This document shows positions 13,584 to 28,290 of a DNA stretch of 64,000 nucleotides, piece after piece. Source of the stretch: a virus (lineage: Duplodnaviria > Caudoviricetes); the IMG/VR virus record IMGVR_UViG_2690316366_000001, positions 44,555 to 108,554 of that record; one strand, 5' to 3'. The position numbers were made by a program, and so were the translations under genes. How positions within the stretch are numbered: the stretch's first letter is position 1; each line of letters starts with the position of its first letter. The notes under the pieces were generated by a model that worked only from the letters and a program-made list of their open reading frames with translations, had not been told where the DNA came from and ran no database searches.

Positions 13584-13865
13584 ATGTCGAGAGAGCCGAC
13601 ATCGCGCGCTGACGCGCTCCGTGCCCAGCGGGAAGCTAACTGGGAGCGGAATCAGGCACTGAAGCGCGAACTCGACGCACGCGACGCCGTAGCAGCGGCG
13701 GCCGCTGCCAAGGATGAAACGCCGGCGCCGAAGCGGGCACCGACGAAGAGGGGCAGAAGCGCGGAAGGGTCCGAAGGAGATAGCCAGCGCACTAACTCTG
13801 GATCTCTCCGATCACTCGATAGTGCTTGCGGGGTAAAACGCCGACCTCGGAACGTCCGCGGATGA
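13584..13865 (+). CDS. Hypothetical protein; 3' end overlaps the convergent island gene
   Basis: AGGAGG RBS; helical N-terminus. Confidence 0.45.
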   Translation: MSREPTSRADALRAQREANWERNQALKRELDARDAVAAAAAAKDETPAPKRAPTKRGRSAEGSEGDSQRTNSGSLRSLDSACGVKRRPRNVRG

Positions 13866-14778
13866 ACGGACGCCACCAGTATATCCCGCTCTTGCGGACC
13901 TTGAAGTGGCCCCGAACCTCATGCTCTCGTATCTCCGCATCGGATAGGTGCTGGGCCTCGGCACTTGCGGACTGTCGGGATGAGAGTTTGATCGTTACAA
14001 TCGAATGACTGAGACGCTTTGGCTTGGTGCCGGTGCGCTTCCGATTGATCTTTGAAAGGTCGGCATCGACTATGTCGATGGCATTGCGGCTGTTCAAGAG
14101 CGCAATTGCTGCGATTACTCGCTTGCTCTCGCCGACCAAATTCTCAGCTGCTGAAGCCTCTAATTGCTTTAACTGCAACGGTGGAACAGTTTTGATTAAT
14201 GCACCGTAGAAACGGCAGGGGGTGGCCGACTCTAGGCTGGTCAGTGCTTTGATTGCATCCCACTCACGTTCGTTGCCGCTAAACCTCTGGACGTATTCAT
14301 CGGATATCTCCCATTTGGATCGAGGCACCCAATCGGGGAATTGCCCGCTGGGACAGATAAATGAACTCAAATATGAAAGGTTCAACCGGGCGGACTCGTC
14401 GTGCAAGCCTCTCGCGACCGCAGAGGCTCGGGAGTGCAGCCAAACGTAGCTAGCCAAAATCAGCCCTTCTTCGGGCGTTTCAAGGAGCACGCCGAACTTG
14501 TCGGGCATCGGCAAGCTTTCAGTTGCCTCGCTGCGGTGAAGTGACCTGCGCTCAGACCATTCGAGCCAAACCGTTGGGAAAGGCAGTCGAACCATCGGAA
14601 CCGCTGACAGCAGGCTCGACGGCTTTGCGAAAGCAACTTGGCTCATGGCCTCGGCGGAGGTATCGCTGAATAGAAACCGCTGGGCCGTCCTGAGTTGGGT
14701 GGCAAGTTGGGTGATGGCTCCGCGAAACTGGCGATCGGCTGCAGATCCGACATTCTCGAGAACGATATCGGCTAACAT
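13792..14778 (-). CDS. Hypothetical protein (328 aa, lower GC) with C-terminal HEVRGH...WWRPF motif
   Basis: Long ORF with AGGA RBS; last gene of the leftward island. Confidence 0.75.
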   Translation of the reverse strand: MLADIVLENVGSAADRQFRGAITQLATQLRTAQRFLFSDTSAEAMSQVAFAKPSSLLSAVPMVRLPFPTVWLEWSERRSLHRSEATESLPMPDKFGVLLETPEEGLILASYVWLHSRASAVARGLHDESARLNLSYLSSFICPSGQFPDWVPRSKWEISDEYVQRFSGNEREWDAIKALTSLESATPCRFYGALIKTVPPLQLKQLEASAAENLVGESKRVIAAIALLNSRNAIDIVDADLSKINRKRTGTKPKRLSHSIVTIKLSSRQSASAEAQHLSDAEIREHEVRGHFKVRKSGIYWWRPFIRGRSEVGVLPRKHYRVIGEIQS

Positions 14779-14784
14779 GCGGTC

Positions 14785-15114
14785 CTACTCGCCCTGTTCG
14801 ATATCGGCGTCCGCCGGCATCTGCCTCAGCTTCTGATAGGGAAATTCACCGAGATCCGGATGCAGCCGGTCGTGCTGGATCATCGCAGCCGCAGCCATGC
14901 GAGCTGTCCCGTGCGCGTTCGGCAGCGTCATCATGGTCAGCGCTATCGGCACCCAAGTCGGGATGTCGTTCCCCCCGTTGGCCCATTTCGTGACCGTGGT
15001 AAGGTTCTGGCACCAGATCCTGGCGAATGCGGGCACGGACATGCCTTGCTTGGCCAACTCGGCCTTGAAGTCCGCGGCCGAGATCTTGCGGTGAACAAAT
15101 CGGGGTGGGGACAT
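14785..15114 (-). CDS. XRE/Cro-like helix-turn-helix protein
   Basis: ISAADFKAELAKQGMSVPAFARIWCQNLTTVTKWANGGNDIP; AAAGGA RBS preceded by island hairpin. Confidence 0.75.
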   Translation of the reverse strand: MSPPRFVHRKISAADFKAELAKQGMSVPAFARIWCQNLTTVTKWANGGNDIPTWVPIALTMMTLPNAHGTARMAAAAMIQHDRLHPDLGEFPYQKLRQMPADADIEQGE

Positions 15115-15207
15115 CTGGAGATTCCTTTCCGGTTGGGCACAATCGCCCGGAATCGGCCGTAGCCGAGGGGGTAGCACAAAATCGATCGTAGCCGGGAGTC
15201 CCGGCCG

Positions 15208-15579
15208 TCAGGTGTAGTCGAGCGGATTGACCATCTGCTTGCCGACGGTCATCACCGGCGGGATGACGCCGCCGCGCTTAATCGCTGCCAGCCATTGCGC
15301 CTCCGTTCCCGTGAAGCCTGGTGCAGCCTCCACATGATGGTCGGCCAGCCATTTGGCGAGGGCCTCGGGCGAGGCGCACGGCGGCGAAACCGGTGTGCCG
15401 GCGCTGGTGGTCTCGTATAGCTGCCAATGCGTTCGCTCCGCGGCTGGCCAGGCCGGCATGCTGCGCGCGGGATCGGGCGAGGGCGCATCCGGGCCGGACT
15501 CGAGCAGCGGGACATATCGGCCGCCGGAGTTGCGGGGGTGCTGCCAGTCAGCGGGCACTTGCCTGACGGTTCTTGACAT
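15208..15579 (-). CDS. Phage hypothetical protein (THWQLYETTSAGTPVSP motif)
   Basis: AAAGGAG RBS; clean ORF. Confidence 0.75.
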   Translation of the reverse strand: MSRTVRQVPADWQHPRNSGGRYVPLLESGPDAPSPDPARSMPAWPAAERTHWQLYETTSAGTPVSPPCASPEALAKWLADHHVEAAPGFTGTEAQWLAAIKRGGVIPPVMTVGKQMVNPLDYT

Positions 15580-15615
15580 AGCAATCTCCTTTCAAAATCG
15601 ATCGTATCCGGGGGA

Positions 15616-15888
15616 TCAGAACAGCGAGCCTTGCGCGGGCGCCGGCGGCTCAGGTTTAAGACGTCCGAGGTGCTCGACCGTCTCGCCTATGATCTGGTCG
15701 CGATCATCATCGATCAGCAGCCAACCATCATCGCCGCCCGCTGGATCGTAAACCACGAAGTCACCGCCCCAACGCTTGAAGATGCGTTGGGCCACCAGGC
15801 GCACGGCCGCGGGAACGTCCGTTGCGGCGTCGAACCCGGCCCGCGTCACGATCTTGAAGCCGGCCGCCGTCAGTATCTGTTCGGTCAT
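15616..15888 (-). CDS. Hypothetical protein ending in QGSLF (beta-clamp-binding-like motif)
   Basis: ORF coupled to the upstream gene; C-terminal QGSLF after a Pro-rich linker. Confidence 0.7.
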   Translation of the reverse strand: MTEQILTAAGFKIVTRAGFDAATDVPAAVRLVAQRIFKRWGGDFVVYDPAGGDDGWLLIDDDRDQIIGETVEHLGRLKPEPPAPAQGSLF

Positions 15889-16079
15889 GTTCGCTGGCCC
15901 TTCGCTCGTTCAAGGGCCGCTTGCACCTCCCAAGCCTGATAGATCGCCCCTCGGGCTTCCGTAAGCTTCTCCCGAACCTCTGGCCGCAATCGCTGGTCAT
16001 TCGAGTCCATGACGCGCGTGAGGCCGTCCAGGAGCCGGTTATAGGTGTCCCAGTGGAAAGGGTGCTTGCGTGCTGTCAC
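15885..16079 (-). CDS. Small helical hypothetical protein (GTG start)
   Basis: GTGA overlap with upstream stop; GAGGG upstream. Confidence 0.6.
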   Translation of the reverse strand: MTARKHPFHWDTYNRLLDGLTRVMDSNDQRLRPEVREKLTEARGAIYQAWEVQAALERAKGQRT

Positions 16080-16387
16080 CGCCGCGCCCTCGCGGCTGCA
16101 TGAACCTTGCGGGCGAGCTCGTCGCGGATCGCGCGGCCAACGTCGGAGTCCTCCATAGCGGTCAGCCAAAGGCGTTCATCGTCCTTGACGACGGCCGCCG
16201 CGGCTTCCTCCAGCGTTTTGCCGGCCATGAAGTGCGGCGCCACGCGGGCAATGAAGGTCTTTTCGTCGTCCGTCAGCTGACGGCCCGGAGCCGGCGGCGC
16301 AGCGAAGGCACCTCCGAGCGCTTCGAGGACGCCGGCGCGCGCGCCTTCAACGGGACCGGAATAGATTTCAGTCTTCTTGGCCGTCAT
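16076..16387 (-). CDS. Hypothetical protein (103 aa)
   Basis: GGAGG RBS. Confidence 0.7.
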   Translation of the reverse strand: MTAKKTEIYSGPVEGARAGVLEALGGAFAAPPAPGRQLTDDEKTFIARVAPHFMAGKTLEEAAAAVVKDDERLWLTAMEDSDVGRAIRDELARKVHAAARARR

Positions 16388-16470
16388 GGGTGAACCTCCG
16401 TTCAAATCGGTCGTAGCCGAGGGGGTGATGGGAAATCGATCGTAGCCGGGGAGGTGGGCGCAGCCGGGGG

Positions 16471-18831
16471 CTATCCCGGCGGCGGCCCATCGATCACGAC
16501 GAGCGCTGTGTTGACCATGGTACCGGCGGCCTTGAATGACCCCGCGGGCAGAGGGCGGTATTCCACCGCCATCGGTTCGAGCTTCGCCCGCTGGCGCGGA
16601 CCGTCGGCGCAGATCGCGACGAGCCGGCCACGAGGCTTCAAGAACTTCCGGCCATGCGTGATGTGCTTGATGTCGGCGCCGTTCTCAAATGGCGGGTTCA
16701 TCAAGACAATGTCGAAACGCTCGGCCGGCGGGTCGAAGTCCAGGAAGTCGCCGCAGTGGACGAACGTGCCGGGGAACGCTGCGCGCAGGTGCTCCGAAAG
16801 TTTTGCGTTGATCTCGACCGCCACCACCTGCAGACCATCGGCGCAGTTGCGCGCAGCTTCGATCAGTGCGCCCGTTCCGGCGCTCGGCTCCAAGATGCGC
16901 TGCCCGGGCCGGATGTCGGCCGCCTCTGCCACGTCCGCGGCGAGTTCGCCCGATGTCGGGAAGAGCTGAGGCGCAACGACGACTTGCACGCCGCCGCCTT
17001 TCAGCATCGCCCGCATGGCCTCGAAACTATCCGCCGCCGTCGGCGCGGGCAAATCGGCCGTATCCGGGACCGGGGCGAGAACGCGCGGCCGAAGGTCCGC
17101 CGGCACGGGCTCGGCCTCGAACGGCACGCCAGCCAGTCCGCAGAATTGCCGCCAGGCGGTCGCCTCGTCGTCGCACCAATCTGTAACGTGCTGGCCGAGG
17201 CCAACACGGAATTTGCCGAGTCCGGTGATGATCTCGGCGCCCGCGCGCTGCGCCTCCGCCTTGGCATCGCCGAGGCGCCGCGGCTCTTCCGCGGGCGCAA
17301 CCGGGACCAGCGCCGCCACGGCCTCGGGCTCGTCCTGGGCCTCCCTCTCGACCGGTGCGCCGATGATCGCGCCGACCGTTGCCAGCATGGCGTCAAGATC
17401 AACCGCGGGCGGCGCGACATACTCGGCGACGAATTCGGCCGGCTCGGTTGGCTCCGGTGCTGGCGCGATCTTGGGCGGATCGACCCGCTTTGCATCCGTG
17501 ATGTAAACTTGGACCTTCTTCCAGTATTCACCGGGCTTCGGCATCTGGCGGACGCGGTGCGCGCTGTGGGTCTCGGTCTCCTTCACTTTGCCGATATAGG
17601 GGAAATCCGAGAACTGCGGGCGCGCCTTCCATTCGGCCTCCGTCATCTCGCGGAATCCTTCGCCGGGATAGTTGCAGATCGGCGGGAGCTTGGCGGCGGA
17701 CTTCGCCGCGGCGACGTTCTCCGCGCTCGGCGGCCGATAATCGCTGATGCTCTCCACGCTCCATTGCGCGCGCTTGGAGCGCGAGCCAGTCGGCGCGGTC
17801 GTCGTCATGCTGGAAACCGAACCGTTGGCGCCCTTGTTGACCTTCAGCACGGTAAGCCACTCGTCGCAGCGGCTCGTCTGCACCTGACCGCCGACCGCGA
17901 AGGCGAAGCGGTCCGCAAGCGGGTTGGCGGTCGCCTCCGCTCCGATCTGCTCGGCCAGCATCGCCCGTTCATAGGCCAGCCGGTTGTCATAGTGCGCAAT
18001 CCAGCGGGCGCGCCGAGGCCCGGAGCGCTCCAGGCTCGGAATCGCAATCGCGGCGGCCTGCGCGGCGGTGATGACGTTCCCATCAATCGCCGACCAAAGG
18101 CCCATTGGCCCCTCATACTGCGAGGCCGGCGGGTCGCGCGGATAATCGGCCAACGGAAACGACATCGACCAATAACCGCCGACATTGGCCACGGCCAAGC
18201 CGGCCGCGCGCTGCTTCTCGGGGTCATTGATGCCGGCGACGATTTGCCAGGCCTTCAGCTGCCTTTCGGTCTCCGCCTGCTGGCGCTCCACCTTCCGCTT
18301 GTCGGACTCAATGCCCTTGATGCGGCGATGACGCACCGCCGGCAGTTCCTTGTATTTCGCATGAGCGATTGCGCCGGCCGCGCGCGCAGTCCAATAATTC
18401 GAGGTGTCCCAGAGCCTGACCGCCTTGCGCATGTTGCTGTGTATGCGCTCTTGATCCTTGCGGGCACGCTTCTCGCTGTGGTGCCCAACCAAAATAGGCT
18501 GCCCCCCATAGAAGCGCTCGGCGATCTCATCGGACACTTTCCGCGCGCTCTCGGCTTCCGCCAAGCGCTTTTCGCTATACCCCTCGAAGCGGTCGGCGCG
18601 CTGCTCGGCGCGGTCGGTCAGCGCGGTGTCTTCGTCGCCGATCTCGCCACACATCTCAATCAGCAAGTCTTCGGCGCCGGGGCTCCAGGTTGGTTTGACG
18701 AACAGTTCTTGACGCGGCGCCCACTTGAAGCCGGCGGCCTTCACGCGCGCGTAATCCTCGGCGTCGAGCCGGTGCGCCGGATAAAGGCGCAGCTTGTTGT
18801 CATCGGGCGAATAGGTGGCGGAATGCTGCAT
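16471..18831 (-). CDS. DUF3560-like N-terminal domain fused to a gamma-class DNA adenine methyltransferase
   Basis: GQPILVGHHSEKRARKD motif; C-terminal FPT, LEPSAGTG, AVEIN, LMNPPF; preceded by island hairpin and AAAGGA. Confidence 0.85.
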   Translation of the reverse strand: MQHSATYSPDDNKLRLYPAHRLDAEDYARVKAAGFKWAPRQELFVKPTWSPGAEDLLIEMCGEIGDEDTALTDRAEQRADRFEGYSEKRLAEAESARKVSDEIAERFYGGQPILVGHHSEKRARKDQERIHSNMRKAVRLWDTSNYWTARAAGAIAHAKYKELPAVRHRRIKGIESDKRKVERQQAETERQLKAWQIVAGINDPEKQRAAGLAVANVGGYWSMSFPLADYPRDPPASQYEGPMGLWSAIDGNVITAAQAAAIAIPSLERSGPRRARWIAHYDNRLAYERAMLAEQIGAEATANPLADRFAFAVGGQVQTSRCDEWLTVLKVNKGANGSVSSMTTTAPTGSRSKRAQWSVESISDYRPPSAENVAAAKSAAKLPPICNYPGEGFREMTEAEWKARPQFSDFPYIGKVKETETHSAHRVRQMPKPGEYWKKVQVYITDAKRVDPPKIAPAPEPTEPAEFVAEYVAPPAVDLDAMLATVGAIIGAPVEREAQDEPEAVAALVPVAPAEEPRRLGDAKAEAQRAGAEIITGLGKFRVGLGQHVTDWCDDEATAWRQFCGLAGVPFEAEPVPADLRPRVLAPVPDTADLPAPTAADSFEAMRAMLKGGGVQVVVAPQLFPTSGELAADVAEAADIRPGQRILEPSAGTGALIEAARNCADGLQVVAVEINAKLSEHLRAAFPGTFVHCGDFLDFDPPAERFDIVLMNPPFENGADIKHITHGRKFLKPRGRLVAICADGPRQRAKLEPMAVEYRPLPAGSFKAAGTMVNTALVVIDGPPPG

Positions 18832-18875
18832 GTGTTTTCATCCTTTCAACTTGCGCACAATCGCGCGGGGCTGCT

Positions 18876-18905
18876 TCTCTAATTTGTGTCGGCCGAATCT
18901 GTCAA
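18876..18905 (-). promoter_or_regulatory. Candidate sigma70-type promoter for the methyltransferase sub-operon
   Basis: Perfect TTGACA (18905-18900) followed after 18 bp by a weak TAGAGA -10. Confidence 0.45.
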
Positions 18906-18960
18906 GCGTGTTTGCAAAATCGGCCGTAGCTCGGGGGTGGAAAATCGATCGTAGCCGGGA

Positions 18961-19863
18961 CTACTGCGCAGTGCCGACGCGCAGGAGTGCCAAGGCGTGA
19001 TACTCGCTGCCCTCGGCGGCCTTGGCCTTTACGAATGCCTCGGCCTCGTCGTCGCGGCTCACGCCGTCGCGGACAAATATTGAAGACTCGGCGTCCGCCT
19101 GAATCTCAAGCGTGCCGGTGTCGCTGTTCTCGAACAGGCCCCATCCTTCCGAGCAAGCGCGGTCATCCTGCCCGATGAATTGCGCCGCGGGCGCAGCCGG
19201 GAGGCCGGCGGCCGCTCGGCGATAGGCCTCGGCCGCCTCGTCAGCGTCGGAGACCGCTTCCGCAATCGTGCCGTCCTCGTCGCTGAACATGCCGCGCATC
19301 TGGTCAATCTGATGGGTGCAGGCGTCGAGCGCGCCGGCCAGGTCGCGGGCGATCTGGCGCCAGTCCTGCGCAGGCGCAACCGGGACTGTGCCGCCGACAA
19401 TCTCCAATTCCTCGACCCGGAAGAAGTCGCCGCGCATTTCGCCGACGCGCTCAAAATAGGCTTCCGCTAGCTCGTCAGGATCGGCCGGCTTGTCCTCGTC
19501 CATCCGTGCGGCCCAATTCTCGGCCGCGATCTCACGGCGCCAGGCGCGCGCCGTGTCGCTGTTAGGATAGAGGCGCGTTTCGTCGCCGTGCCGGGTTTCA
19601 TGGGTAGCCACGGCGAGCGGTGGCAGCGTCACGGTCTGCTCTTCGATGATGCAGGGGCCGTCAACGGCATCTTCCCATAGCTCGCTGATATTGTCCGCCG
19701 TCGCGGCCTCGACCGCGGCCAGGCGCTCGGGGGTCCGCTTGAGGATGTCGCGCAGGCTCGTGCGGACATATTCCGCCGCCTCGGACTGCGTGGCGTGCAC
19801 CGTGGTTTCGGTCCCGCAGTTGTCGCCCTCAGTGGTGCAAGTCCAAATCGTGATTGTGCTCAT
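18961..19863 (-). CDS. Acidic hypothetical protein (300 aa), probably multidomain
   Basis: AAAGGAG RBS; D/E-rich. Confidence 0.75.
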   Translation of the reverse strand: MSTITIWTCTTEGDNCGTETTVHATQSEAAEYVRTSLRDILKRTPERLAAVEAATADNISELWEDAVDGPCIIEEQTVTLPPLAVATHETRHGDETRLYPNSDTARAWRREIAAENWAARMDEDKPADPDELAEAYFERVGEMRGDFFRVEELEIVGGTVPVAPAQDWRQIARDLAGALDACTHQIDQMRGMFSDEDGTIAEAVSDADEAAEAYRRAAAGLPAAPAAQFIGQDDRACSEGWGLFENSDTGTLEIQADAESSIFVRDGVSRDDEAEAFVKAKAAEGSEYHALALLRVGTAQ

Positions 19864-19907
19864 TGTGATGATCTCCTTTCAAAAACAACCGTAGCCAAGG
19901 GGCGGAA

Positions 19908-20258
19908 TCAGTCGCGGGCGGGGGGATTGGTGCGGGTTTCGAGGCAGCGCGCGTGGCGCTCGGCGCCCTCTACGGATTTCAGCGCGCGCGCCACGTAATC
20001 CGCTGCATTGTTGGCGTCGGCGATCCGCAGGTGATTGCGCGCGGTGCGGATCAACTGCGCGGCAAGCCGGACACGCTCCAGGCGGGAGGCCGGCGGCGTT
20101 TCCAACAGCGACAACTGCGCGTCACGCTTCTGCAGGCGCTCAATCTCGGCCAGCGCCAAGTCAGCTTGTGCGCTCGGGCTGTCGCTGTCCTCGTGCGGAA
20201 CGTCAACATTCAGCGCGTCAAGAATCGAGTCGGTAAAGTCGGTGCAGGTGTAAGTCAT
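19908..20258 (-). CDS. Hypothetical protein with internal QLSLL motif
   Basis: AAAGGA RBS preceded by island hairpin. Confidence 0.75.
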   Translation of the reverse strand: MTYTCTDFTDSILDALNVDVPHEDSDSPSAQADLALAEIERLQKRDAQLSLLETPPASRLERVRLAAQLIRTARNHLRIADANNAADYVARALKSVEGAERHARCLETRTNPPARD

Positions 20259-20398
20259 TTGGCTTTCGTCCTTTCGTTTTACGCACTATCGCGCAGATGG
20301 TGGAGCGACCGCGGCCAGGTGCGCGCGTCATCCACCGCGCAAAATCAGCCGTAGTCGGGAGGTGCGCCGCCGGCCGGGAAATCAGCCGGCCCCGGGGG

Positions 20399-20790
20399 TT
20401 ACTCGGCGAGCTCCTCCAGGGTGACGCCGTCTTCGGCCGCATACTCGGAAATCAGAGTCAGCGCCCAATCTTCCGCCGCGCCGATCATTTCGCCGTCGCC
20501 GCCGCCGTGTTTCGAGTTGACCCGGGCGCATGCGTCCGCGGTCCATCGTTCAAGGCCGGGAACGTCGCCGAAAAAGTCGCGCGCGCGTTCCAAAACGGAT
20601 TCCTCCGACAAGCACGCGAGGCCGTAAATCCCGGCGATGTGCTCGTCAATCCGTCATCGCGGGTTGAGCGCTGGCGCGCGTAGCGCCAGGCTACGCCGTA
20701 GCGTTGCAGCGCGGAGCGGACGCGCCATCGATACTTTGAAGCCTCGTTAACGAGCGTGGCGAGCGGCGAGCGGGGCAAGGTGAGATGCAT
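20399..20790 (-). pseudogene. Hypothetical gene split by a probable 1-nt deletion near 20651
   Basis: AAAGGA RBS and MHLTLPR... start; span is 392 nt (3n-1); the second frame continues IDEHIAGIYGLACLSEESVLERA... but has TGA two codons upstream. Confidence 0.55.
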
Positions 20791-20837
20791 AACGGTTCCT
20801 TTGTTCTGTGATGGGAGATCGGCCGGCGACGGGACTG

Positions 20838-21116
20838 TTAGCAATTCACTTCGTGAAAGCCGCGCGCACCGTTCAAGACCTTGAAGCCCGGCGGGGAACG
20901 ATCGCCCTTGCCAATCCGCATAGTGGCAACCGCCGGCTTTCCCGTTGCCGCCAGGTCCGCGCAGTAGTCCGCGAATGCCTTTTCTGCATCGGCCGCGCGC
21001 TTGATCTCGACTTCGCGCCGTGGGAGCGGGCTTTTGTCCTCTCCGATGCAAAGCGCCACGCTAACGAATGCGCCGTTACGTTCCGCCGCGTAGCTATTCA
21101 AGATCAGTTTTGCCAT
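20838..21116 (-). CDS. Hypothetical protein (92 aa)
   Basis: AAAGGAG RBS preceded by island hairpin. Confidence 0.75.
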   Translation of the reverse strand: MAKLILNSYAAERNGAFVSVALCIGEDKSPLPRREVEIKRAADAEKAFADYCADLAATGKPAVATMRIGKGDRSPPGFKVLNGARGFHEVNC

Positions 21117-21202
21117 GTCGTTTAACTCCTTTCGAATTGCGCACCATTGCGCCGAAAAAATCGGCCTAGCCGACGGATTGGGGAAATCGGCCGCAACCGG
21201 GA

Positions 21203-21616
21203 CTAGGCCGCGGCGACTTGCTCGGCCGGCTTTTCGTCGGTCTGCGAAACGTCGAAAACCGGGACCAGGATAAACCGCACCGACTCCGCCACGGCCTCGG
21301 CTGCGGCGCCGTCCGCGCTCGGAGCCGCTGAGGCCTCGGCCGTTGCGCGCCGGCCGGACGGCGCAAAGATGTAGATTGCGGACTCGCCTTTGCGGACCGC
21401 GCGGCCGGCGGCAAGCCATTGATTGAAGCCGCCCAGCATGGTTGCGCCTTCGCATTGCATCGCCGCCAGCATGTGATTTTTGCCGGATATCGGCCGCGCG
21501 TCCGCGGTGAGGATCGGCGCGCGCTGCAGCCAAAGCGCCTTCTGCTCTTCCGTCATGTTGGCAATCTGGCGCGCCAGCTGCGCGGCCTTTTCTTTGTTGG
21601 GATTCGGTTTCCGCAT
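21203..21616 (-). CDS. Stand-alone ArdC-like N-terminal ssDNA-binding domain protein
   Basis: SGKNHML...GFNQWLAAGRAVRKGESAIYIFAP...F..VPVFDVSQT matches the ArdC-N pattern; hairpin plus AAAGGA. Confidence 0.75.
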   Translation of the reverse strand: MRKPNPNKEKAAQLARQIANMTEEQKALWLQRAPILTADARPISGKNHMLAAMQCEGATMLGGFNQWLAAGRAVRKGESAIYIFAPSGRRATAEASAAPSADGAAAEAVAESVRFILVPVFDVSQTDEKPAEQVAAA

Positions 21617-21686
21617 GGTCTGTTTTCCTTTCCGGTTGCGCACAATCGCGCGTGTTGCATTCCGTGAGGCCGAGGCGCGCCGCTTC

Positions 21687-21884
21687 TTAGTGCAGTTCCC
21701 AGGCGCGCAATTCGACGCCTGAACGCTTGCCGCGCTTGAATTCGTCGCAGCGGCGCGCGTATTCCTCGGCCTCGGCGGCAATATCAAACCGCCGCGATAG
21801 TTCGCCCCAATTGTTGAATTCGCAGCGATCAACCAGGCGAAACTTTGCGCCATCGGGCAAGATATCGAATCCATAGGCTCGCAT
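21687..21884 (-). CDS. Small hypothetical protein (65 aa)
   Basis: GGAG RBS; fits between neighbours. Confidence 0.6.
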   Translation of the reverse strand: MRAYGFDILPDGAKFRLVDRCEFNNWGELSRRFDIAAEAEEYARRCDEFKRGKRSGVELRAWELH

Positions 21885-21899
21885 TGCTGGCGACTCCGA

Positions 21900-22997
21900 C
21901 TAGCTGGCGCGGATCGCGCAGAGAGGCGCAACCGGGAGGGATGGCCGAGGCGCGCCGAGCGATGACGAGGCCAGGAAGCGCGCGGCGCGGGAAGGCGCAA
22001 CCGGGATAGGGGCCGCGGAGTTGGGCGCGGGCGCAACCGGGAGGGAATCGGCCGTATCCGGGAGGGAGGCCGCCGCGGTTTCGACGCCGGCGGAATTGTC
22101 TGCGACAAGCCGCAACCGCGGCGCCTCGGCCTCGGCCTTGGCTGCAGCTGCGCGCGCCTCGGCCTCTTGCTCGGCGCGCCGGCCGGCCTCGGCCTCGGCC
22201 TTTGCCGCGGCTTTGGCCTCGGCCTCGGCCGCGCGAACGATGGCGCGGCGCCGCGCTTCAATTTCCAGCCATGCCATACCGCCGAGGCGCGACCGATAGT
22301 CTGCAATCTGCGCGCCGAGCTCGGCCGCGCGTTCCTCGTCGGCGCCGGCCAAAATCTCGGCCTCGGCCGAGGCAATGAGGTAGTGCCCGCGGTAGAAGTC
22401 GGCGCGCGTCAACCCGCCGGCCTCGGCGGTTTCCGGCAAGGCCGAGGCCTCGGCGGAAAGTGCGACATGATCGAAACGGCCGCGGCGATATTCGGCCGTC
22501 CGCGCGTTGCATTCCTCGGCCGGATATTCGGCGCCGGTAGCGTCACAGATGGCGGAAATGATGGACGGGACCGCGACACAATCGGAACCGATGGCCGAGG
22601 CTTTCCCGAATTCCCGCGCGATCCGCGCGCGGTAGAAGGCAAAGGCAACACGCAAGCCGCGGCCGATATTGACCGGCTTGCCAGGCAGTGAAACCGCTGG
22701 CGCGCGTACCACGGCGCCGCATGCGAACGTCACAACGATGATAGGTGACTTGCCTAGCTTTTTCGTCGCGCTTGCAGGAATGACGTAGTCCGCCCATGGA
22801 TCCGCCGCGCCGTCCGGGATCTTGGCCGCGCCGGATCCAGCTTTCTGCGCCGGCAATGCGAGGCGCAGCAAATCGGCAATGCCGCGCCAGTTCGCGCCGT
22901 CGGGATTCGCGGTCGCGTTGTCATAGGCGAGGATCGCCAGCGCGCGCCGTTCCGTTGCCTTTGCGGCCTTGGCCGCGATCAAATCAACTTGTTGCAT
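21900..22997 (-). CDS. Ala-rich hypothetical protein (365 aa) with coiled-coil and PVAP-repeat tail
   Basis: AAAGGA RBS preceded by island hairpin; start MQQVDL. Confidence 0.75.
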   Translation of the reverse strand: MQQVDLIAAKAAKATERRALAILAYDNATANPDGANWRGIADLLRLALPAQKAGSGAAKIPDGAADPWADYVIPASATKKLGKSPIIVVTFACGAVVRAPAVSLPGKPVNIGRGLRVAFAFYRARIAREFGKASAIGSDCVAVPSIISAICDATGAEYPAEECNARTAEYRRGRFDHVALSAEASALPETAEAGGLTRADFYRGHYLIASAEAEILAGADEERAAELGAQIADYRSRLGGMAWLEIEARRRAIVRAAEAEAKAAAKAEAEAGRRAEQEAEARAAAAKAEAEAPRLRLVADNSAGVETAAASLPDTADSLPVAPAPNSAAPIPVAPSRAARFLASSSLGAPRPSLPVAPLCAIRAS

Positions 22998-23061
22998 GGT
23001 CCATTGTCCTTTCTGATTTGCGCACGATTGCGCCGAGAATTGAGGGAAGGCCGAGGCCAGG

Positions 23062-23360
23062 TTAGGCCGTAGCTTTGGCGCGGCGCCGCGCGTCAATCGC
23101 GGCGCGTATCTCTTTCTTGAACCGGGGCGCATAACGGCCGTTGAATGCGCGCAATTCAGAAAAGGCGATATCGGCCGCGGCCTTGGCAATCCGGTATCGC
23201 GGATCGAATTTAATTCGGTCCGGAGTCAGTCCCATCGGACCGCGCGCCGGAATCCCATTTCGGCCGCAAGGCCTTCTGTCACGGCGCCGAGGCGCGCGCC
23301 GGCCTCTTTCATCCGATTATCCAACTCGGCCGCGGCGGCTTGGAATGCTGCAAAATCCAT
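23062..23360 (-). pseudogene. Phage hypothetical gene (RGPMGLTPD...LRAFN type) split by a probable 1-nt deletion near 23255
   Basis: AGGTG RBS and MDFAAFQ...AEMG, then a frame change to IPARGPMGLTPDRIKFDPRYRIAK...; span 299 nt (3n-1). Confidence 0.6.
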
Positions 23361-23368
23361 CGGTGCAC

Positions 23369-23557
23369 CTAGACGCTTTCGTCAAAGCGCGCGGCCTCAA
23401 AGTCGCGGCTTGCCTGTTCTGCCTCGGCGCCGGTAAGCATGCGGCGGCTTGTCGGATAATAGAACGCGCGCGTTCCGACCGGGATGAAATGCCCGTTGCG
23501 GTCATTGGCCGGATATTTGGTAATGATCCATCGCGGATCGCCGCCATAGCGTGCCAT
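23369..23557 (-). CDS. Small hypothetical protein (62 aa, MARYGGDPRWI)
   Basis: AAAGGA RBS preceded by island hairpin. Confidence 0.75.
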   Translation of the reverse strand: MARYGGDPRWIITKYPANDRNGHFIPVGTRAFYYPTSRRMLTGAEAEQASRDFEAARFDESV

Positions 23558-23615
23558 TGTAGTCTGTCCTTTCCAGTTTGCGCACAATCGCGCGAATGAA
23601 TTCGACGGCGCCGGC

Positions 23616-23954
23616 CTAGTAACCTGCGGCCTCGGCGGAATAGTCGCGCTGGCCAGTCTCGGCGATTTGCCAGTCCGGAAAGCGCGCGCCGTTTTCGGTA
23701 TCGTTGTACCCCGCCGAGAGCCTATCGGCCGCGCAGCTGCAAACGCCATCGCGGGTTATGCGTCCATCGCAGTCCGCGCCATCGTTGCACCATTCGTTAG
23801 TCACGGTTTGCCCGTCGAAAGAAAAGATATTTGACTCGCGCGTCCATCCTTCGTCCGTTCTGGCGCCGTGCGAATGGTGCAACGTTTGGCCAGTCCGCAA
23901 CGCGATACGGACAAGGCCGGATTTGTGATAGTGCCAAAAGCGCGCTGTTTTCAT
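23616..23954 (-). CDS. Hypothetical protein (112 aa; TDEGW, DCDGR, QRDYSAEAAGY motifs)
   Basis: AAGGGA RBS; clean ORF. Confidence 0.75.
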   Translation of the reverse strand: MKTARFWHYHKSGLVRIALRTGQTLHHSHGARTDEGWTRESNIFSFDGQTVTNEWCNDGADCDGRITRDGVCSCAADRLSAGYNDTENGARFPDWQIAETGQRDYSAEAAGY

Positions 23955-23967
23955 GGTGCGGTATCCC

Positions 23968-24297
23968 TTACGGAAGGCGGTTGAAAACGGAATGATAGGC
24001 CGAGGCCTCGGCGATGCATTCCCGCGCGGCCTCCAGATTGCGAGCGCGGCTCATGGGCGAGAGTTTCGCCGCGCGCCGATAGTAAGCCGCCCAGTGCAAA
24101 GCCTCGGCCGCAAGCGCGCGGCGCGGCCGGCAAGATAGGCGAGAGGTACGCAAGGCAACCGGACCGGCCGCGCGTTCTGCGCGCGCCGTGAATTCGATTC
24201 CGTTACAGACAATCCAGAACGTTGCCACGTTGTGGCGCCGGACGCGCGCCTCGGCGCGTAGCGCGGAAATGGTGCGGCGGTATGCATCGCGATTCAT
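23968..24297 (-). CDS. Basic hypothetical protein (109 aa)
   Basis: ATGA overlap with the upstream gene; GGAG RBS. Confidence 0.6.
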   Translation of the reverse strand: MNRDAYRRTISALRAEARVRRHNVATFWIVCNGIEFTARAERAAGPVALRTSRLSCRPRRALAAEALHWAAYYRRAAKLSPMSRARNLEAARECIAEASAYHSVFNRLP

Positions 24298-24698
24298 GCT
24301 GCGCGCTCCAGTTCGCAAGCCGCGGTCCATCCGGTTGCGCGATCATAGGAGGCCGCGCGCGCGATCATTGGCGGCTTGCGCAATTCGTCATCCGGCGGAA
24401 TCACGCCATAGCGTTCCGGCGCAGCGTCAAGTTTCGCCATGGCTGCAGCATGCTCGGCCGCGCGCCACACATTGAAGGCCGCGACGATATGCGCCGGTAG
24501 CGGTTCAGCGTATCGGACAAGCATGCCGATTCCGGTCCGCATGGCGCGGCGGACGTCATCGCCATTTGCTATCGATAGCTCATAGTCAGAAACGGAATGA
24601 CGGATGGAAACTTCATAGCTGCCGGTTTCATCTGTCACGCGATAGTAAACGGTCCCCATGTAGGAACACGTCCAAGCGAATTGCGGTTTGCGGTTCAT
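24294..24698 (-). CDS. Hypothetical protein (134 aa)
   Basis: AAAGG RBS preceded by island hairpin. Confidence 0.75.
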   Translation of the reverse strand: MNRKPQFAWTCSYMGTVYYRVTDETGSYEVSIRHSVSDYELSIANGDDVRRAMRTGIGMLVRYAEPLPAHIVAAFNVWRAAEHAAAMAKLDAAPERYGVIPPDDELRKPPMIARAASYDRATGWTAACELERAA

Positions 24699-24736
24699 GG
24701 TCGAAAGCCTTTTTCGATTGCGCACAATCGCGCGGG

Positions 24737-24979
24737 TTAGTTGGCCAGGTTCCTAGCTTCACGGTTGAGCGCGGAAACCTCGCGACGAAACGCCGTGATT
24801 CCCTTTTCTCCGATATCCAACTTTCCGCCGGTCGGAGTCGGCAGATATCCGACATAACCGCGAATGTTGAAATACAGCTGGCCAGTCCGCGCGCCGTTCA
24901 AGAGAACGTCATAGCGCGGCGTCTTTTCCAGCGTTTGGCAACCGCGGCGGGTTTCCTGCAATTCCAATTTCCAAGGCAT
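24737..24979 (-). CDS. Hypothetical protein (80 aa)
   Basis: AAAGGA RBS preceded by island hairpin. Confidence 0.75.
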   Translation of the reverse strand: MPWKLELQETRRGCQTLEKTPRYDVLLNGARTGQLYFNIRGYVGYLPTPTGGKLDIGEKGITAFRREVSALNREARNLAN

Positions 24980-25072
24980 TGGCCGTTGTCCTTTTCGAGT
25001 TTGCGCACAATCGCGCTTTGGTCCGCTTTGGCGTTCCGTTGTACGGCGCGCGCGGCGCCGTACAGGGGAAAG

Positions 25073-25384
25073 TCAGAAGGCGGCTTGATTGGGCGGCTTA
25101 GGCAATCCGGAAAGCGCGCTTAACGTTTGCGCAACAGACTGCGCGGCCTCGGCCGTTGGGCAATCGGTAATTGCTTCGCAACCGCCGGCTTTGAGATGGG
25201 CGTAAACGGTCCAAAACTCGGCCTCGGAATCCGGGATTCCGCCATTGGTGAAAGTGAACCCGGTTTCGTCCGTTTCCGTGTTGCATCCGCCGACTTCAAG
25301 CCAATCAAATGGCGACCAATCCGGCGCCGTGTTACCAGTGCAGCAATTGAAATAGACGGCGCCGTCAAGTGACACTGCAGGCAT
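25073..25384 (-). CDS. Acidic Cys-containing hypothetical protein (103 aa)
   Basis: GAGGAG RBS. Confidence 0.7.
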   Translation of the reverse strand: MPAVSLDGAVYFNCCTGNTAPDWSPFDWLEVGGCNTETDETGFTFTNGGIPDSEAEFWTVYAHLKAGGCEAITDCPTAEAAQSVAQTLSALSGLPKPPNQAAF

Positions 25385-25396
25385 TGCCCTAACTCC

Positions 25397-25501
25397 TCAA
25401 AGGCAAGAATTCAGAAAAGCACGCTTGCCATTGCGGTCCGCGGCGCGCCGAGTCCGCTTGTCCATCGGCCGGCGCTCGGAATCATGCTTGCGATACTTCA
25501 T
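25397..25501 (-). CDS. Very small basic peptide (34 aa, MKYRKHDSERR)
   Basis: AAAGGA RBS preceded by island hairpin at the usual spacing. Confidence 0.65.
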   Translation of the reverse strand: MKYRKHDSERRPMDKRTRRAADRNGKRAFLNSCL

Positions 25502-25593
25502 AGCTCGTTTTCCTTTTCCAGTTTGCGCACAATTGCGCGGTTTCGGCGGTTTGTCGGTTATGCCGTGACGTGCACGGCATAGGCTGCAAACCG

Positions 25594-25902
25594 TTAGCGG
25601 CGATCCTGCAGCGCGCTGGCGATGGTATCGCCAAAGCCTAACAGGATCGAAACGGAATCCGATTGGGCCAGGTCGGCGCCAGTTTCGCAACGAATGACGG
25701 CCGGCGCGGTCCCGCGCCATTCGCGGCGAATGATCGAATTTGCGAAACGATGGTGCGCATAGTCGGGATTCGATAGGAGCACGGCGCAATGTGCTGCGCG
25801 CTGCATTGTCCGCCTATCAGCTGCAGCCATCCAAGCCATATCGAATTCGTCGCGCAGTGCATGCCGCGCCGCGTCCAGTGCTACAGGGTTTCCGATTTGC
25901 AT
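25594..25902 (-). CDS. Hypothetical protein (102 aa)
   Basis: GAGGAG RBS overlapping the upstream stop. Confidence 0.65.
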   Translation of the reverse strand: MQIGNPVALDAARHALRDEFDMAWMAAADRRTMQRAAHCAVLLSNPDYAHHRFANSIIRREWRGTAPAVIRCETGADLAQSDSVSILLGFGDTIASALQDRR

Positions 25903-25915
25903 TGTTGCGCGCTCC

Positions 25916-26101
25916 TCAATTCGCGATTGCGAGCGCAAGCCGCGCGGTGCGGATATGGCCGAGGCGGTCCGCTGGAATGGTGCGATCGGCCGAGGCCAGG
26001 GTTTCGGCATTGGACACAAGCCGCAATGCGAGTGTGAGGTTTCCGAGGCGGATCGCCGCGGCCGCATGATGCAACAGGCTTCTAACGGTTGAGTTTGTCA
26101 C
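25916..26101 (-). CDS. Small helical hypothetical protein (61 aa, GTG start)
   Basis: GAAGG RBS preceded by island hairpin. Confidence 0.65.
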   Translation of the reverse strand: MTNSTVRSLLHHAAAAIRLGNLTLALRLVSNAETLASADRTIPADRLGHIRTARLALAIAN

Positions 26102-26152
26102 TGCTCTTGCCTTCAAGTTTGCGCACAATCGCGCGGGTTGAGCCGGACCGGG

Positions 26153-26344
26153 CTAGCGGCGCGGCGGACTGGAACGGCGCGCGCGGCGCCGGATCATGAG
26201 GCGCCGAGGCTTTGCCGGCGCGTAAAGGAAGGGAGCTAGGCCAGCCCAGCAAAGGGTATAGATCGCCGCAACAATCAAACCGGCAACCGGTGGGTTAGCT
26301 GCGCAAAGGGAAAGGAAGGCGTGCACGGCGCGGCCCCTAAGCAT
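26153..26344 (-). CDS. Small membrane protein (one TM segment, basic tail)
   Basis: VAGLIVAAIYTLCWAGLAPFLY hydrophobic segment; start overlaps upstream stop. Confidence 0.5.
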   Translation of the reverse strand: MLRGRAVHAFLSLCAANPPVAGLIVAAIYTLCWAGLAPFLYAPAKPRRLMIRRRARRSSPPRR

Positions 26345-26573
26345 TCGGCCGCGATTGGTCGGCGGACACTTCGCACGATATGACGCGAAAGCACGCAATG
26401 CCTTTGGCGTTCAATTCGCGATACTTGGCCAACGAAATACGCTCGGCAAAGCGCGCGCGGTCTTTGGCACGGTCGCAGGCATGATCAGCGGAATGGGAAA
26501 AGAGGCGGATATGATAATCGCAACCGGTTGCGATACGGCGGACAGTGACTTGATAGGCGAGGGTCTTTGCCAT
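26337..26573 (-). CDS. Hypothetical protein (78 aa), first hairpin-associated gene of the island
   Basis: AAAAGG RBS preceded by island hairpin; TTGACA at 26649-26644 upstream. Confidence 0.7.
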   Translation of the reverse strand: MAKTLAYQVTVRRIATGCDYHIRLFSHSADHACDRAKDRARFAERISLAKYRELNAKGIACFRVISCEVSADQSRPNA

Positions 26574-26722
26574 GTCGGCGGCCTTTTGAGTTGCGCACAA
26601 TCGCGCTTTCCGTTCGCCGCACATGCCTATAAAGCGCGGCGCGTGTCAATCCCTTAATTCGCTATTCTGTGAAAAAAGATAGCGGTTAGACCGGCCGGAC
26701 TCACACTAGAGGGAATTCCGGC

Positions 26723-27034
26723 CTATTCCTGCAGAATGGCGTTTATCCGCCCGAGGCGAAAGGCCTCTTGCATGGGTACCGCGGGCGAAAGGCCGGCCGC
26801 AACGGCGCGACACTTCAAGGCGAGTTCAGCGCTACCGCCTTCCGCGCGTACAGCCGTGACAGTGTTAGGCGAGATAAACAGCGCTGCAGCTGCGGCGCCA
26901 TTGGATAGGCCTAGCTCCTCTTGCCAGGCCTTGAATTCGGCCGCGCTGATTCGCATTGCGGCGCCGGCCGAGGCATAGGCGCGGCCTTTGCCAGCTTGCC
27001 TCGGCGCCGAGTTATCCGCCTTCGCTGCAGGCAT
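26723..27034 (-). CDS. XRE/Cro-like helix-turn-helix protein
   Basis: ISAAEFKAWQEELGLSNGAAAAALFISPNTV...LALKCRAV; GAGGG RBS (alternative start 26956). Confidence 0.7.
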   Translation of the reverse strand: MPAAKADNSAPRQAGKGRAYASAGAAMRISAAEFKAWQEELGLSNGAAAAALFISPNTVTAVRAEGGSAELALKCRAVAAGLSPAVPMQEAFRLGRINAILQE

Positions 27035-27209
27035 GTGCTTTCCCTCTTGCGTGAGTCCGGAACGTTCATTGCCGGGTTACCTATCACAGAACAGGGAAAG
27101 GCCGAGGCCGCGCCGCGCCGTCATGCACCGCCGAGTAGCGGAACCGGATTTGACACTCCGACTCCGATTATGATTCAGAACAGGCATTCGGCGCATTGTC
27201 GCTGCAGCC

Positions 27210-27239
27210 AACCCGCCGCGGGAAACCTCGGCGGGTTTT
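27210..27239 (+). terminator. Intrinsic terminator-like hairpin
   Basis: AACCCGCCG-cGG-GAAA-CCt-CGGCGGGTT followed by TT. Confidence 0.6.
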
Positions 27240-27498
27240 GCGTTTCTGGCCTCGGCGCCTCGGCCTCGGCGGATGGACGCAAGGCCGCAACGTCAACCGC
27301 AACACGCCACTAGGTCGAGCTAGTGAGAGGGAAGCGCGGGAGGTTACCGCGCGCGGCGCGGGCGCCAGCGGCACCCATGCGTTAGGCCAGCGCGGCAAGG
27401 CCAGGTCGCTCCGATTGACGCGCAACGCGCCAGCGCCCGCCGCATGACGCGCGCAGCACCACGCCAGCCATCCGGACCGGCCAGCGCCTCGAGGCCAA

Positions 27499-27573
27499 GG
27501 GGTATGGGGTCGGAAAGTCTAGGAATCGACGGGACCCCCTACCGCACGGGGGCTCATTCGCACATTTTTTTTT
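27499..27573. other. Probable cos/packaging-site region
   Basis: G-rich run, GAAAGTCT, ACCGC and a T9 run immediately before terS, the pattern typical of HNH-dependent cos phages; exact cut site not determinable. Confidence 0.5.
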
Positions 27574-27631
27574 GGTCGACCGGAAATTTCATCCAGTTCG
27601 CCCAAAACGGCAAAGAAATTGGAGTTTCGGC

Positions 27632-28087
27632 ATGGCCCGAGGTCGGCCGGCGTTCAAACCGACGAAAGCGCAGCGCACGAAGGTCGAGGAGTGGATCGCG
27701 TGCGGAATGTCCCAGGATGAATGCGCTCGAGTGCTCGGGATCTCGACGCCGACGCTGGTGAAGTCCTTCCCCGAGGAGATCGCGACCGGTGTGGCCAAGA
27801 AGCGGGCCGAGGTTGTCGGGATGCTCTTCAAGCAGGCGAAGAAGGGCAATGCCACCTGCATCAAGAAACTCGAGGAGATGACCCGGGTATCGGCCGCTGC
27901 TCAGGCGATCGCCGATCTCGGCAACGCCGGTGTCGAGGTTCCGGCTGCACCACGTGCACCAGAGAAGGTTGGGAAAAAGGCGGAGCGAAAGGCCGCGGCC
28001 GAACGAGTTGCGGCATCGGGAGCGTTTCAGCCCCCTGAGCCGCCAAAGATTGGCCTTGTGATCGACAATACTGCGGTTAACGAGTAG
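27632..28087 (+). CDS. terS: Terminase small subunit
   Basis: MARGRPAFKPT N-terminus, HTH ARVLGISTPTL, GKK...AA tail; directly upstream of terL. Confidence 0.8.
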   Translation: MARGRPAFKPTKAQRTKVEEWIACGMSQDECARVLGISTPTLVKSFPEEIATGVAKKRAEVVGMLFKQAKKGNATCIKKLEEMTRVSAAAQAIADLGNAGVEVPAAPRAPEKVGKKAERKAAAERVAASGAFQPPEPPKIGLVIDNTAVNE

Positions 28088-28092
28088 CCGGC

Positions 28093-28290
28093 ATGCGCGG
28101 GCGGCAGTCCTATGAAGAGCGCCCGGGTCGCCGCATCATCACCATGCGGATCATGCGTCGCCTGCCGCACTGTCCCCTTGATCGGGCCGTCGGCATCCTA
28201 TCGCGGTGTGGCAAGCGGCGCGCTGAGCCTCTCGTGACCGGCCGGCACAAGGGGTTTCGCCTGCGTCATAGGTCCACGCGATCGCAATGA
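28093..28290 (+). CDS. Small basic hypothetical protein between terS and terL
   Basis: Fills the gap exactly, ATGA overlap with terL; weak RBS. Confidence 0.35.
   Translation: MRGRQSYEERPGRRIITMRIMRRLPHCPLDRAVGILSRCGKRRAEPLVTGRHKGFRLRHRSTRSQ

Follow-up and report, generated by a model that had tools for sequence, protein, structure and literature searches.

What is marked, and for which reader, when one short hairpin stands before the start codons of a dozen unrelated phage genes is the question raised by the prophage sequence analysed here, a window of 64,000 nucleotides (nt) corresponding to positions 44,555 to 108,554 of the IMG/VR provirus record IMGVR_UViG_2690316366_000001. An earlier note on this DNA had described twelve copies of the hairpin in a single island of leftward genes and had read them as an RNA-level signal. 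All twelve could be re-found, with the sequences given there and at coordinates that differ from those below by two nt (the adjoining AA had been counted with the core). The covariation observed among related prophage arrays, well beyond that within the window itself, strongly supports the hairpin as a real structure which is under selection and tied to translation starts. Neither this wider family nor the role of the element at cassette junctions featured in the earlier note.

Hairpins and their spacing to start codons

Within the window, ten matches to the pattern GYGCRATNGTGCRC were found, all on the minus strand, where 0.09 are expected and where the maximum among 100 shuffled sequences was one. 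Searching the consensus GCGCGATTGTGCGC with up to two mismatches gave twelve matches, likewise on the minus strand only and spanning positions 15135 to 26606, a number attained in none of 100 shuffles (shuffle mean 3.76). Neither the degenerate pattern nor the mismatch-tolerant consensus placed a copy elsewhere in the window, and in the complete 108,554-base record all ten matches to the exact pattern fall inside the island, with none on the other strand and none for a reversed control pattern, so that the confinement to the island claimed earlier extends to the whole record. On the coding strand each copy reads N5-A-T-N-G-N5 and is followed by AA, by a Shine-Dalgarno (SD) sequence of the AAGG/AGGA type beginning 7-9 nt past the 14-nt core, and by a start codon 19-23 nt past the 3' end of the core. 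The copy at 23020, for example, is separated by 22 nt from the ATG of a 365-amino-acid (aa) open reading frame (ORF) at 22997. The 17-21 nt given in the earlier note, with the AA counted, are the same distance. The stem is nearly constant within the window, and the array and its hairpins are as follows:

13792-27034, minus strand: leftward accessory array of about 27 genes in units of one to three genes, between the replication module and the terminase
26593-26606, minus strand: hairpin copy 1, GCGCG-ATTG-TGCGC, preceding the 78-aa g2 (26337-26573)
26121-26134, minus strand: hairpin copy 2, preceding the 61-aa g3 (GTG start at 26101)
25525-25538, minus strand: hairpin copy 3, GCGCA-ATTG-TGCGC, preceding g5, which encodes a 34-aa arginine-rich peptide (25397-25501)
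25003-25016, minus strand: hairpin copy 4, preceding the 80-aa g7 (24737-24979)
24720-24733, minus strand: hairpin copy 5, 3 nt past the g7 stop codon and preceding g8 (24294-24698)
23580-23593, minus strand: hairpin copy 6, preceding the 62-aa g11 (23369-23557)
23020-23033, minus strand: hairpin copy 7, GCGCA-ATCG-TGCGC, preceding the 365-aa g13 (21900-22997)
21638-21651, minus strand: hairpin copy 8, preceding g15, which encodes an ArdC-N domain (21203-21616)
21139-21152, minus strand: hairpin copy 9, GCGCA-ATGG-TGCGC, preceding the 92-aa g16 (20838-21116)
20281-20294, minus strand: hairpin copy 10, GCGCG-ATAG-TGCGT, preceding the 116-aa g19 (19908-20258)
18853-18866, minus strand: hairpin copy 11, preceding g21, which encodes a 786-aa DUF3560 and methyltransferase protein (16471-18831)
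15135-15148, minus strand: hairpin copy 12, GGGCG-ATTG-TGCCC, with outer pair 2 swapped, preceding the helix-turn-helix (HTH)-like g26

The hairpin heads units of one to three genes, such as the coupled unit g8-g10, and genes beginning 6-15 nt past their neighbour, or overlapping it, carry none. The distance from the upstream stop codon to the hairpin ranges from 3 nt to more than 300 nt. The GGG/CCC stem of copy 12 also stands before the g26 orthologue in eight Bradyrhizobium-type arrays (G001-G008).

Covariation, distribution and cassette exchange

An exact 16-mer from the hairpin occurs in multiple copies in nine further IMG/VR provirus records, each of which was found by mismatch-tolerant searches to hold a one-strand cluster of 5-12 copies, always ahead of an SD sequence and a start codon. 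The stems of these close relatives are almost invariant and so provide little structural information. A covariance model of the kind suggested in the earlier note was built from the twelve window copies and run on 80 loci, 78 of which were gathered via homology to the methyltransferase, and led to the more distant arrays L182, L228 and L235 and later to the metagenomic array L240. Judged by the source names of their proteins, L228 and L235 are of Mesorhizobium type and L182 is of Rhodopseudomonas type, while the proteins near-identical to those of the window are from Bradyrhizobium. In the distant arrays the apical C-R-[A-Y-N-G]-U-G is unchanged, and the three outer pairs vary from copy to copy with complementarity kept.

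For the structure test, copies were defined by C[GA]A[ACT]NGTG with an SD sequence and a start codon on the gene strand, the outer bases being disregarded. This gave 128 copies in 14 arrays (8-13 per array; 39 distinct 14-mers), always in gene orientation. All three outer pairs form in 117 of these, two in ten and one in a single copy, whereas only 10/108 sense-strand apices without SD and start, and 10/141 antisense apices, pair at all three outer positions. Among the 95 distinct rows, 97.5 % of cells are paired (74.7 ± 1.4 % when shuffled) and 72 double-sided changes occur (20.4 ± 3.2 when shuffled), with neither value attained in any of 500 shuffles, and the covariation score is 0.545, compared with 0.191 for shuffled rows and at most 0.145 with slid partners. 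Changes on both sides are found at each of pairs 1-3, with pair 2 being CG in 63 and GC in 31 rows, and pair 3 being GC in 67, CG in 22 and UA in six. Pairs 4 and 5 are set by the search pattern and carry no weight in this test. Copies of common descent are counted repeatedly, so that the shuffle fractions should not be taken as probabilities; even so, the set comprises nine or more distinct outer stems, including GCG/CGC, GGG/CCC, AGT/ACT, GGC/GCC, CGC/GCG, TGC/GCA, GCT/AGC, GGT/ACC and CGG/CCG. Two copies with a 2-nt deletion (L049:13482 and L235:5791) still form a 4-bp hairpin. The gap between hairpin and SD sequence is 3-9 nt among the 128 copies, and exactly 7 nt in 68 of them, with 11-24 nt between hairpin and start codon.

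In two whole Bradyrhizobium genomes of 8.3-8.4 Mb, with 150 of the approximately 4,100 first-look candidates scored in each, 9 and 11 matches of at least 25 bits were obtained, forming one single-strand cluster of about 10 kb per genome, and only one match of this score lay off the clusters across both genomes. The off-array matches inspected are situated in coding sequence or lack an SD sequence and start. Sampling a further 150 genomes from the order and 120 from the genus, with stricter filters and few candidates scored, revealed at most two matches in any one genome. An exact 16-mer scan of genome contigs yielded two useful Bradyrhizobium records, nearly all of the matches listed being single and probably due to chance. 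On this sampling the hairpin is not a host signal. A separate proposal, that it is a general companion of the DUF3560/methyltransferase gene, was rejected: of 71 loci outside the close family, four have arrays and 65 have no or one match to the model R2.

BLAST comparisons were made among nine arrays, the pairs of which are not independent and in which a conserved motif naturally bounds alignments. With this proviso, 70 of 544 segment ends lie within -8 to +30 of a hairpin start, against 19.3 expected if uniform; 44 segments start at -5 to +4 of the first base of the hairpin, and ends cluster 15-29 nt past that base. G002 lacks precisely the one-gene cassette g7, which two hairpin copies delimit in the window, while in G004 and G005 the cassette order is permuted, with the g11 unit ahead of g8-g10. 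With an identical stretch of 14-20 nt ahead of each unit, the element is also a recombination joint, where relatives gain, lose and reorder cassettes.

Level of action, candidate readers and rival explanations

The case for a sense-strand RNA element is built on the strict orientation, the tight SD spacing, the free distance to the upstream stop codon, the pairing at position 5 and the asymmetric apex. Position 5 is G or A facing a constant U, with G-C once, so that the sense strand can always pair where the opposite strand has mostly A.C. The invariant part of the element is asymmetric and its variable arms are symmetric, a combination that argues against a double-stranded operator for a symmetric dimer; such conservation would be that of a protein-read RNA hairpin, and the reverse of that of a duplex-DNA site bound by a symmetric dimer. 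A further ground is that no phage RNA polymerase or sigma factor was recognised among the approximately 40 window proteins scanned (the left 44.5 kb of the record lie outside the annotated part). One promoter-like sequence was read by eye:

18877-18905, minus strand: sigma-70-like TTGACA-N17-TTAGAG, ending 10 nt ahead of hairpin copy 11 and unlisted by the consensus scan

The TTGAC(A/G) hexamer recurs, again by eye, in related arrays, and in several of these the TTGAC(A/G)-N17 hexamer pair ends 10 nt ahead of the methyltransferase-gene hairpin, which would then be the 5' end of the transcript and not the promoter. A sigma-70 consensus scan over 15 kb gave one promoter-like site, with 3.0 expected, and none at any hairpin. 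The hairpin thus likely acts as RNA, and is best read as a signal within the transcript that borders the ribosome site on its 5' side.

Two genes at the array ends encode candidate readers:

26723-27034, minus strand: g1, 103 aa, XRE-like HTH protein at the array head with no hairpin ahead, candidate reader or regulator
14785-15114, minus strand: g26, 109 aa, HTH-like protein at the array tail, candidate reader or regulator

Both are XRE-like HTH proteins, and although their similarity is weak (41 % identity over 41 aa), they are the most constant companions of the hairpin arrays, and XRE-type HTH genes bracket every array examined for them. A g1-like gene is located at the head of 8/8 other Bradyrhizobium-type arrays and of the Rhodopseudomonas-type L182 (ORF 3007-3375), and is divergently placed in the two Mesorhizobium-type arrays, L228 and L235. 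A g26-like gene occurs at the array tail in all three genera, and is hairpin-tagged in the Bradyrhizobium- and Mesorhizobium-type arrays. Word-based searching for g1 homologues gave four relatives, and a g1 profile produced weak XRE/HigA-type matches only among PDB sequences (best relevant E 0.013). The 34-aa arginine-rich product of g5 (25397-25501, minus strand), with the conserved core DKRTRR...GKRAFLNSCL, recurs as well: it is always hairpin-tagged, and its family is found in 9/9 Bradyrhizobium-type arrays (the window and G001-G008), in L182 and in L240. Neither of the Mesorhizobium-type arrays gave a relative when searched with a hidden Markov model of this family (best E 0.082), and g5 itself has no Pfam family, its best ESM Atlas score of 0.77 being a lead only.

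The reading that we favour, and put forward tentatively, is that the hairpin is a portable ribosome-site module read by an array-encoded factor and, at the same time, a joint for cassettes. It would lie in the leader RNA of every unit of the leftward accessory array that is translated on its own, and such units encode ArdC-N, the DUF3560-methyltransferase and many ORFans. The module consists of a stem of 4-5 bp with any complementary bases at the three outer pairs, an invariant apex comprising a C-G pair, an R.U pair and the loop A-Y-N-G, approximately seven unpaired A-rich nt, the SD sequence and the start codon. A factor acting in trans would recognise the invariant, asymmetric apex once the RNA has folded, the likeliest such factor being one of the two XRE-type HTH proteins bracketing the array, by Aca-like binding to hairpins of the 5' untranslated region (UTR). 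As the 30S subunit binds immediately next to the hairpin, a bound factor would switch the translation of all tagged genes together, the reader and the direction of this effect being what we infer. An operator for an array-encoded protein is thus the preferred but unproven mechanism. In a more far-reaching form, which is possible but doubtful, the hairpin would be an operon-wide RNA address label: one small array protein, either of the XRE-type HTH bookends or the arginine-rich peptide of 34 aa, would read the apex on up to thirteen leaders, switching translation or read-through of a first-expressed counter-defence arsenal, which captured genes would join by recombination thanks to the free outer stem and the repeated module.

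A tag that is read would provide compact and portable translation-level control of a dozen unrelated phage genes together, and, if the address label were true, a self-extending translational regulon without a described equivalent at such scale, open to any captured gene through recombination. The element further offers a sequence handle for discovering genes with accessory or counter-defence roles (the 14 arrays hold about 128 tagged genes, mostly ORFans) and a natural example of a repeated regulatory module that would also drive cassette shuffling. With an unconstrained outer stem, a fixed apex and a spacer of 7 nt as its rules, the 14-nt element could be tried as a synthetic-biology part, and the long-open role of phage start-associated repeats becomes directly testable in tractable hosts (Bradyrhizobium and Mesorhizobium).

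Several observations weigh against a sense-RNA hairpin with an array-encoded reader. Pair 1 has seven C.A mismatches, which are wobbles on the opposite strand, versus four G.U or U.G pairs, the 18-mers fold with average energies of -6.63 kcal/mol on the sense and -6.67 kcal/mol on the antisense strand (the latter being the stabler in 36/66), and A stands opposite C at pair 5 in three copies of L237, where the apex reads A-AUGG-C. The g1-like proteins of the three genera share 38-40 % identity over about 50 residues, yet the apex is identical, a pattern also compatible with a conserved reader supplied by the host or with the absence of any reader, and the co-occurrence of HTH gene and hairpin may be due to shared descent alone. 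Pfam gave sub-threshold generic HTH matches only for g1 and none for g26, with no Aca family and no DUF1870 found; the AlphaFold model of g1 is helix-rich and mediocre (mean pLDDT 65.3), and Foldseek returned no PDB match for it at E ≤ 0.001, the best being a generic XRE-type HTH at E ≥ 0.055. The earlier argument, by which no change disrupts pairing on the coding strand, is borne out within the window, whereas in the wider family the wobble pairs do not separate the strands. The RNA-level reading proposed there retains the selected hairpin tied to starts, the fixed SD spacing and the constant orientation, while its G.U argument is weaker than had been stated.

Among the rival explanations, a factor-independent cis element is possible though less to be expected: the hairpin would insulate the ribosome site and/or protect the unit mRNA from 5'-end-dependent decay, and would be copied since new genes thereby become translatable. 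The fixed SD distance, the presence of the element only where ribosomes must load de novo and the freely varying outer stem are all in keeping with this, as is the TTGAC(A/G)-N17 pair 10 nt ahead of the methyltransferase hairpin in several arrays, which would place the hairpin at the 5' end of the transcript, although those hexamers were not listed by the consensus scan. A purely structural hairpin, however, needs no invariant loop, and C4, A6, G9, U10 and G11 are kept across three genera; this invariance is partly imposed by the search pattern, yet the mismatch-tolerant searches gave no other apex within the arrays. Processing, in which a host or phage endoribonuclease cuts beside the hairpin to split a long transcript into gene units capped by it, is unlikely. 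The repetition at unit boundaries and the U-rich element B tracts (described below) just upstream of several copies would suit such a role, and intercistronic processing sites in phage early operons are an analogue, but RNase III would need a much longer stem than one of 4-5 bp, the array proteins scanned included no recognisable nuclease family, and the spacing is fixed to the SD sequence and not to the end of the upstream gene.

A signal in DNA is improbable, be it an operator bound as duplex by the HTH proteins or a promoter that extrudes a hairpin, as for the virion RNA polymerase of phage N4. It would be consistent with the imperfect palindrome, the bracketing HTH genes, the position of each copy before a unit and the absence of a strand-specific wobble signal. 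Against this, CRAYNGTG with its 3' A is asymmetric and the symmetric outer arms vary, the reverse of a symmetric-dimer site, and the arms are 2 bp closer together in two copies. No RNA polymerase or sigma factor is found among the scanned window proteins, melting a GC-rich stem immediately before the supposed start would be difficult, and a start about 7 nt downstream would put the SD sequence at the extreme 5' end of the transcript. A nut-like antitermination system, with g5 binding the hairpins in nascent RNA and polymerase reading through weak terminators between units, is very unlikely, even with g5 being itself hairpin-tagged and present in the Bradyrhizobium-type and Rhodopseudomonas-type arrays and L240, and with some element B copies having T-runs past a short stem: g5 relatives did not turn up in either Mesorhizobium-type array, element B does not consistently form a hairpin, and the tight SD coupling is left unexplained. 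To our knowledge, twelve sites per operon are without precedent among nut systems, which also counts against this rival. There is equally little to be expected of a site that is primarily for recombination, the folded-strand target of a site-specific recombinase in the manner of integrons and unconnected with expression. Breakpoints do concentrate at the hairpin, cassettes are exactly present or absent and their order is permuted, but short-homology recombination between identical repeats suffices for such junctions, no integrase or HUH-type family was recognised among the array proteins scanned, and 14 nt is far below the size of attC and leaves the fixed 7-nt SD distance unexplained.

Known systems and further repeats

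Screening of window positions 13000-29000 against Rfam (cmscan, E ≤ 5) returned three sub-threshold chance matches to snoRNA and lncRNA models, with no family at the hairpins, which answers the comparison with Rfam suggested in the earlier note. None of four 14-mers of the family occurs in the searched literature, a search that does not extend to supplements, which may hold motif lists (e.g. that of PMC13551039), and for Bradyrhizobium prophage stem-loop repeats and anti-defence UTR hairpins only this one paper, on Aca proteins, turned up. Being absent from Rfam and from the sequences of the searched papers, the element is a previously uncatalogued hairpin family of Rhizobiales prophages.

The Aca system is the closest mechanistic precedent. 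HTH Aca proteins bind 5'-UTR hairpins beside the ribosome-binding site (RBS) and block translation, and Aca motifs are also reported from inside operons, where they separate genes, and ahead of as many as three operons in the neighbourhood (PMC13551039). Common to Aca2, Aca1 and the present arrays is a short, covarying 5'-leader hairpin beside the RBS of accessory or anti-defence genes, together with a co-encoded HTH regulator (PMC13551039); the hairpins found here covary, adjoin the RBS and occur with ArdC-N and DUF3560-methyltransferase cargo, their position in a leader being predicted. They differ in numbering 8-13 copies per array, in having bracketing HTH proteins that fall outside the Aca families, with no regulator of a described Aca family (e.g. 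DUF1870 for Aca2), and in that no hairpin-like promoter inverted repeat was identified, binding by the HTH proteins being a candidate only.

The start-associated sequences (SAS) of Cluster K mycobacteriophages are 13-bp asymmetric linear motifs which contain AGGAG and lie 3-7 bp ahead of the start (PMC3203893). Similarly to the hairpin, they number 11-19 copies in a single orientation, occur in the non-structural half of the genome before the starts of unrelated genes, are not found in the host genome and have no known function (PMC3203893). SAS, however, include the SD sequence, which the hairpin precedes by 3-9 nt. The accompanying ESAS are 17-bp imperfect inverted repeats with a variable spacer, the departures from which do not support RNA pairing (PMC3203893), unlike the 5-nt arms, fixed 4-nt loop and compensatory departures seen here. 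The promoter-early stem-loops (PeSLs) of T4-type phages, which are composite terminator/promoter units, are likewise small repeated stem-loops between small accessory genes and points of cassette exchange between related phages (PMC4122927). Junctions of indels and replacements between relatives do lie at the hairpin (70/544 segment ends, an exact one-cassette indel and permuted order), but it has no sigma-70 promoter at most copies, no U-run past the stem, and is tied to the SD sequence.

Neither the 57-141-nt imperfect inverted repeat of integron attC sites nor an IntI is matched by this 14-nt element, no integrase family being found among the scanned array proteins. An N4-type hairpin promoter would call for a phage-encoded virion RNA polymerase able to read hairpins of the template strand, and no RNA polymerase family is seen in the approximately 40 window proteins scanned, with the left 44.5 kb of the record unannotated. 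The operator hairpins bound by the coat protein in RNA phages and by the N protein in lambdoid phages combine a generic stem with a loop that a protein recognises by its sequence. The invariant apex and free lower stem found here follow the same pattern of conservation, but those operators occur once or twice per genome, their loop and proteins are unrelated, and there is no sign of membership.

The array covers approximately 13 kb of the prophage. To its left are replication genes on the plus strand, encoding C5 and N6 methylases, a Toprim primase and DnaB, while from 28287 onwards the plus strand encodes the terminase, portal, protease, HK97-type capsid, tail tube and tape measure. Few array families could be recognised: Pfam matches above threshold are limited to DUF3560 and methyltransferase (both in the 786-aa protein) and the ArdC N-terminal domain (in a 137-aa protein), with weak HTH signals only beyond these, and a Pfam scan of window positions 13056-13574 gave no family. 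PHROGs comparison of 20 array proteins gave four families, every one annotated as "unknown function". The last array gene, g27 (13792-14778, minus strand; 328 aa; PHROG 20769, unknown function), has no tblastn match among 13 other loci, and is cargo particular to the phage of the window. Hairpin-tagged cargo in the other genera includes a homologue of the DNA polymerase III beta subunit (sliding clamp) and a DUF932 protein (L228:12117-13460 and L182:4644-5504).

A second strictly polar repeat, element B, with a consensus of about CCC(T/C)CGGCTACG(G/A)(C/T)CGATTT, is present in ten copies in the window array:

22047-22059, 20344-20356, 19884-19896, 18944-18956 and 17053-17065, minus strand: element B
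16435-16447, 16406-16418, 15597-15609, 15181-15193 and 15152-15164, minus strand: element B

Related arrays each hold 7-14 copies, versus 0-3 on the opposite strand. The copies lie past stop codons, some directly ahead of an SD sequence (g20, g22, g25) and some just upstream of a hairpin. A hairpin structure for element B was rejected, as the variants disrupt a possible 5-bp stem and do not compensate, and it looks like a linear site in DNA or RNA. The copy at 17053-17065 lies inside the 786-aa ORF (16471-18831), where the DUF3560 and methyltransferase halves join, and in G001, G004, G005 and G008 two B copies at this junction are followed by GAGG and ATG, which suggests a fused gene, or one that some relatives carry in two parts.

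Other repeats were encountered in distant loci. Long tandem units of 12-15 nt at the locus ends of L190, L250, L198 and L230, which dominated the k-mer counts, are probably repeat-containing coding sequence and are unrelated to the hairpin. A different start-associated repeat, CTCCCTACCACGGAG, occurs in twelve copies (e.g. at 112, 895 and 1814) in L184, a distant phage with a homologous methyltransferase; it contains the SD sequence, ends 6-9 nt ahead of start codons with possible CUCC/GGAG pairing, and is often preceded by an AT-rich repeated box. The distant phage L186 carries nine copies (e.g. at 7132, 9953 and 12692) of the palindrome ATCACAGGGTGTGAT, which is flanked by A- and T-runs and is intergenic, at variable distances to the starts.

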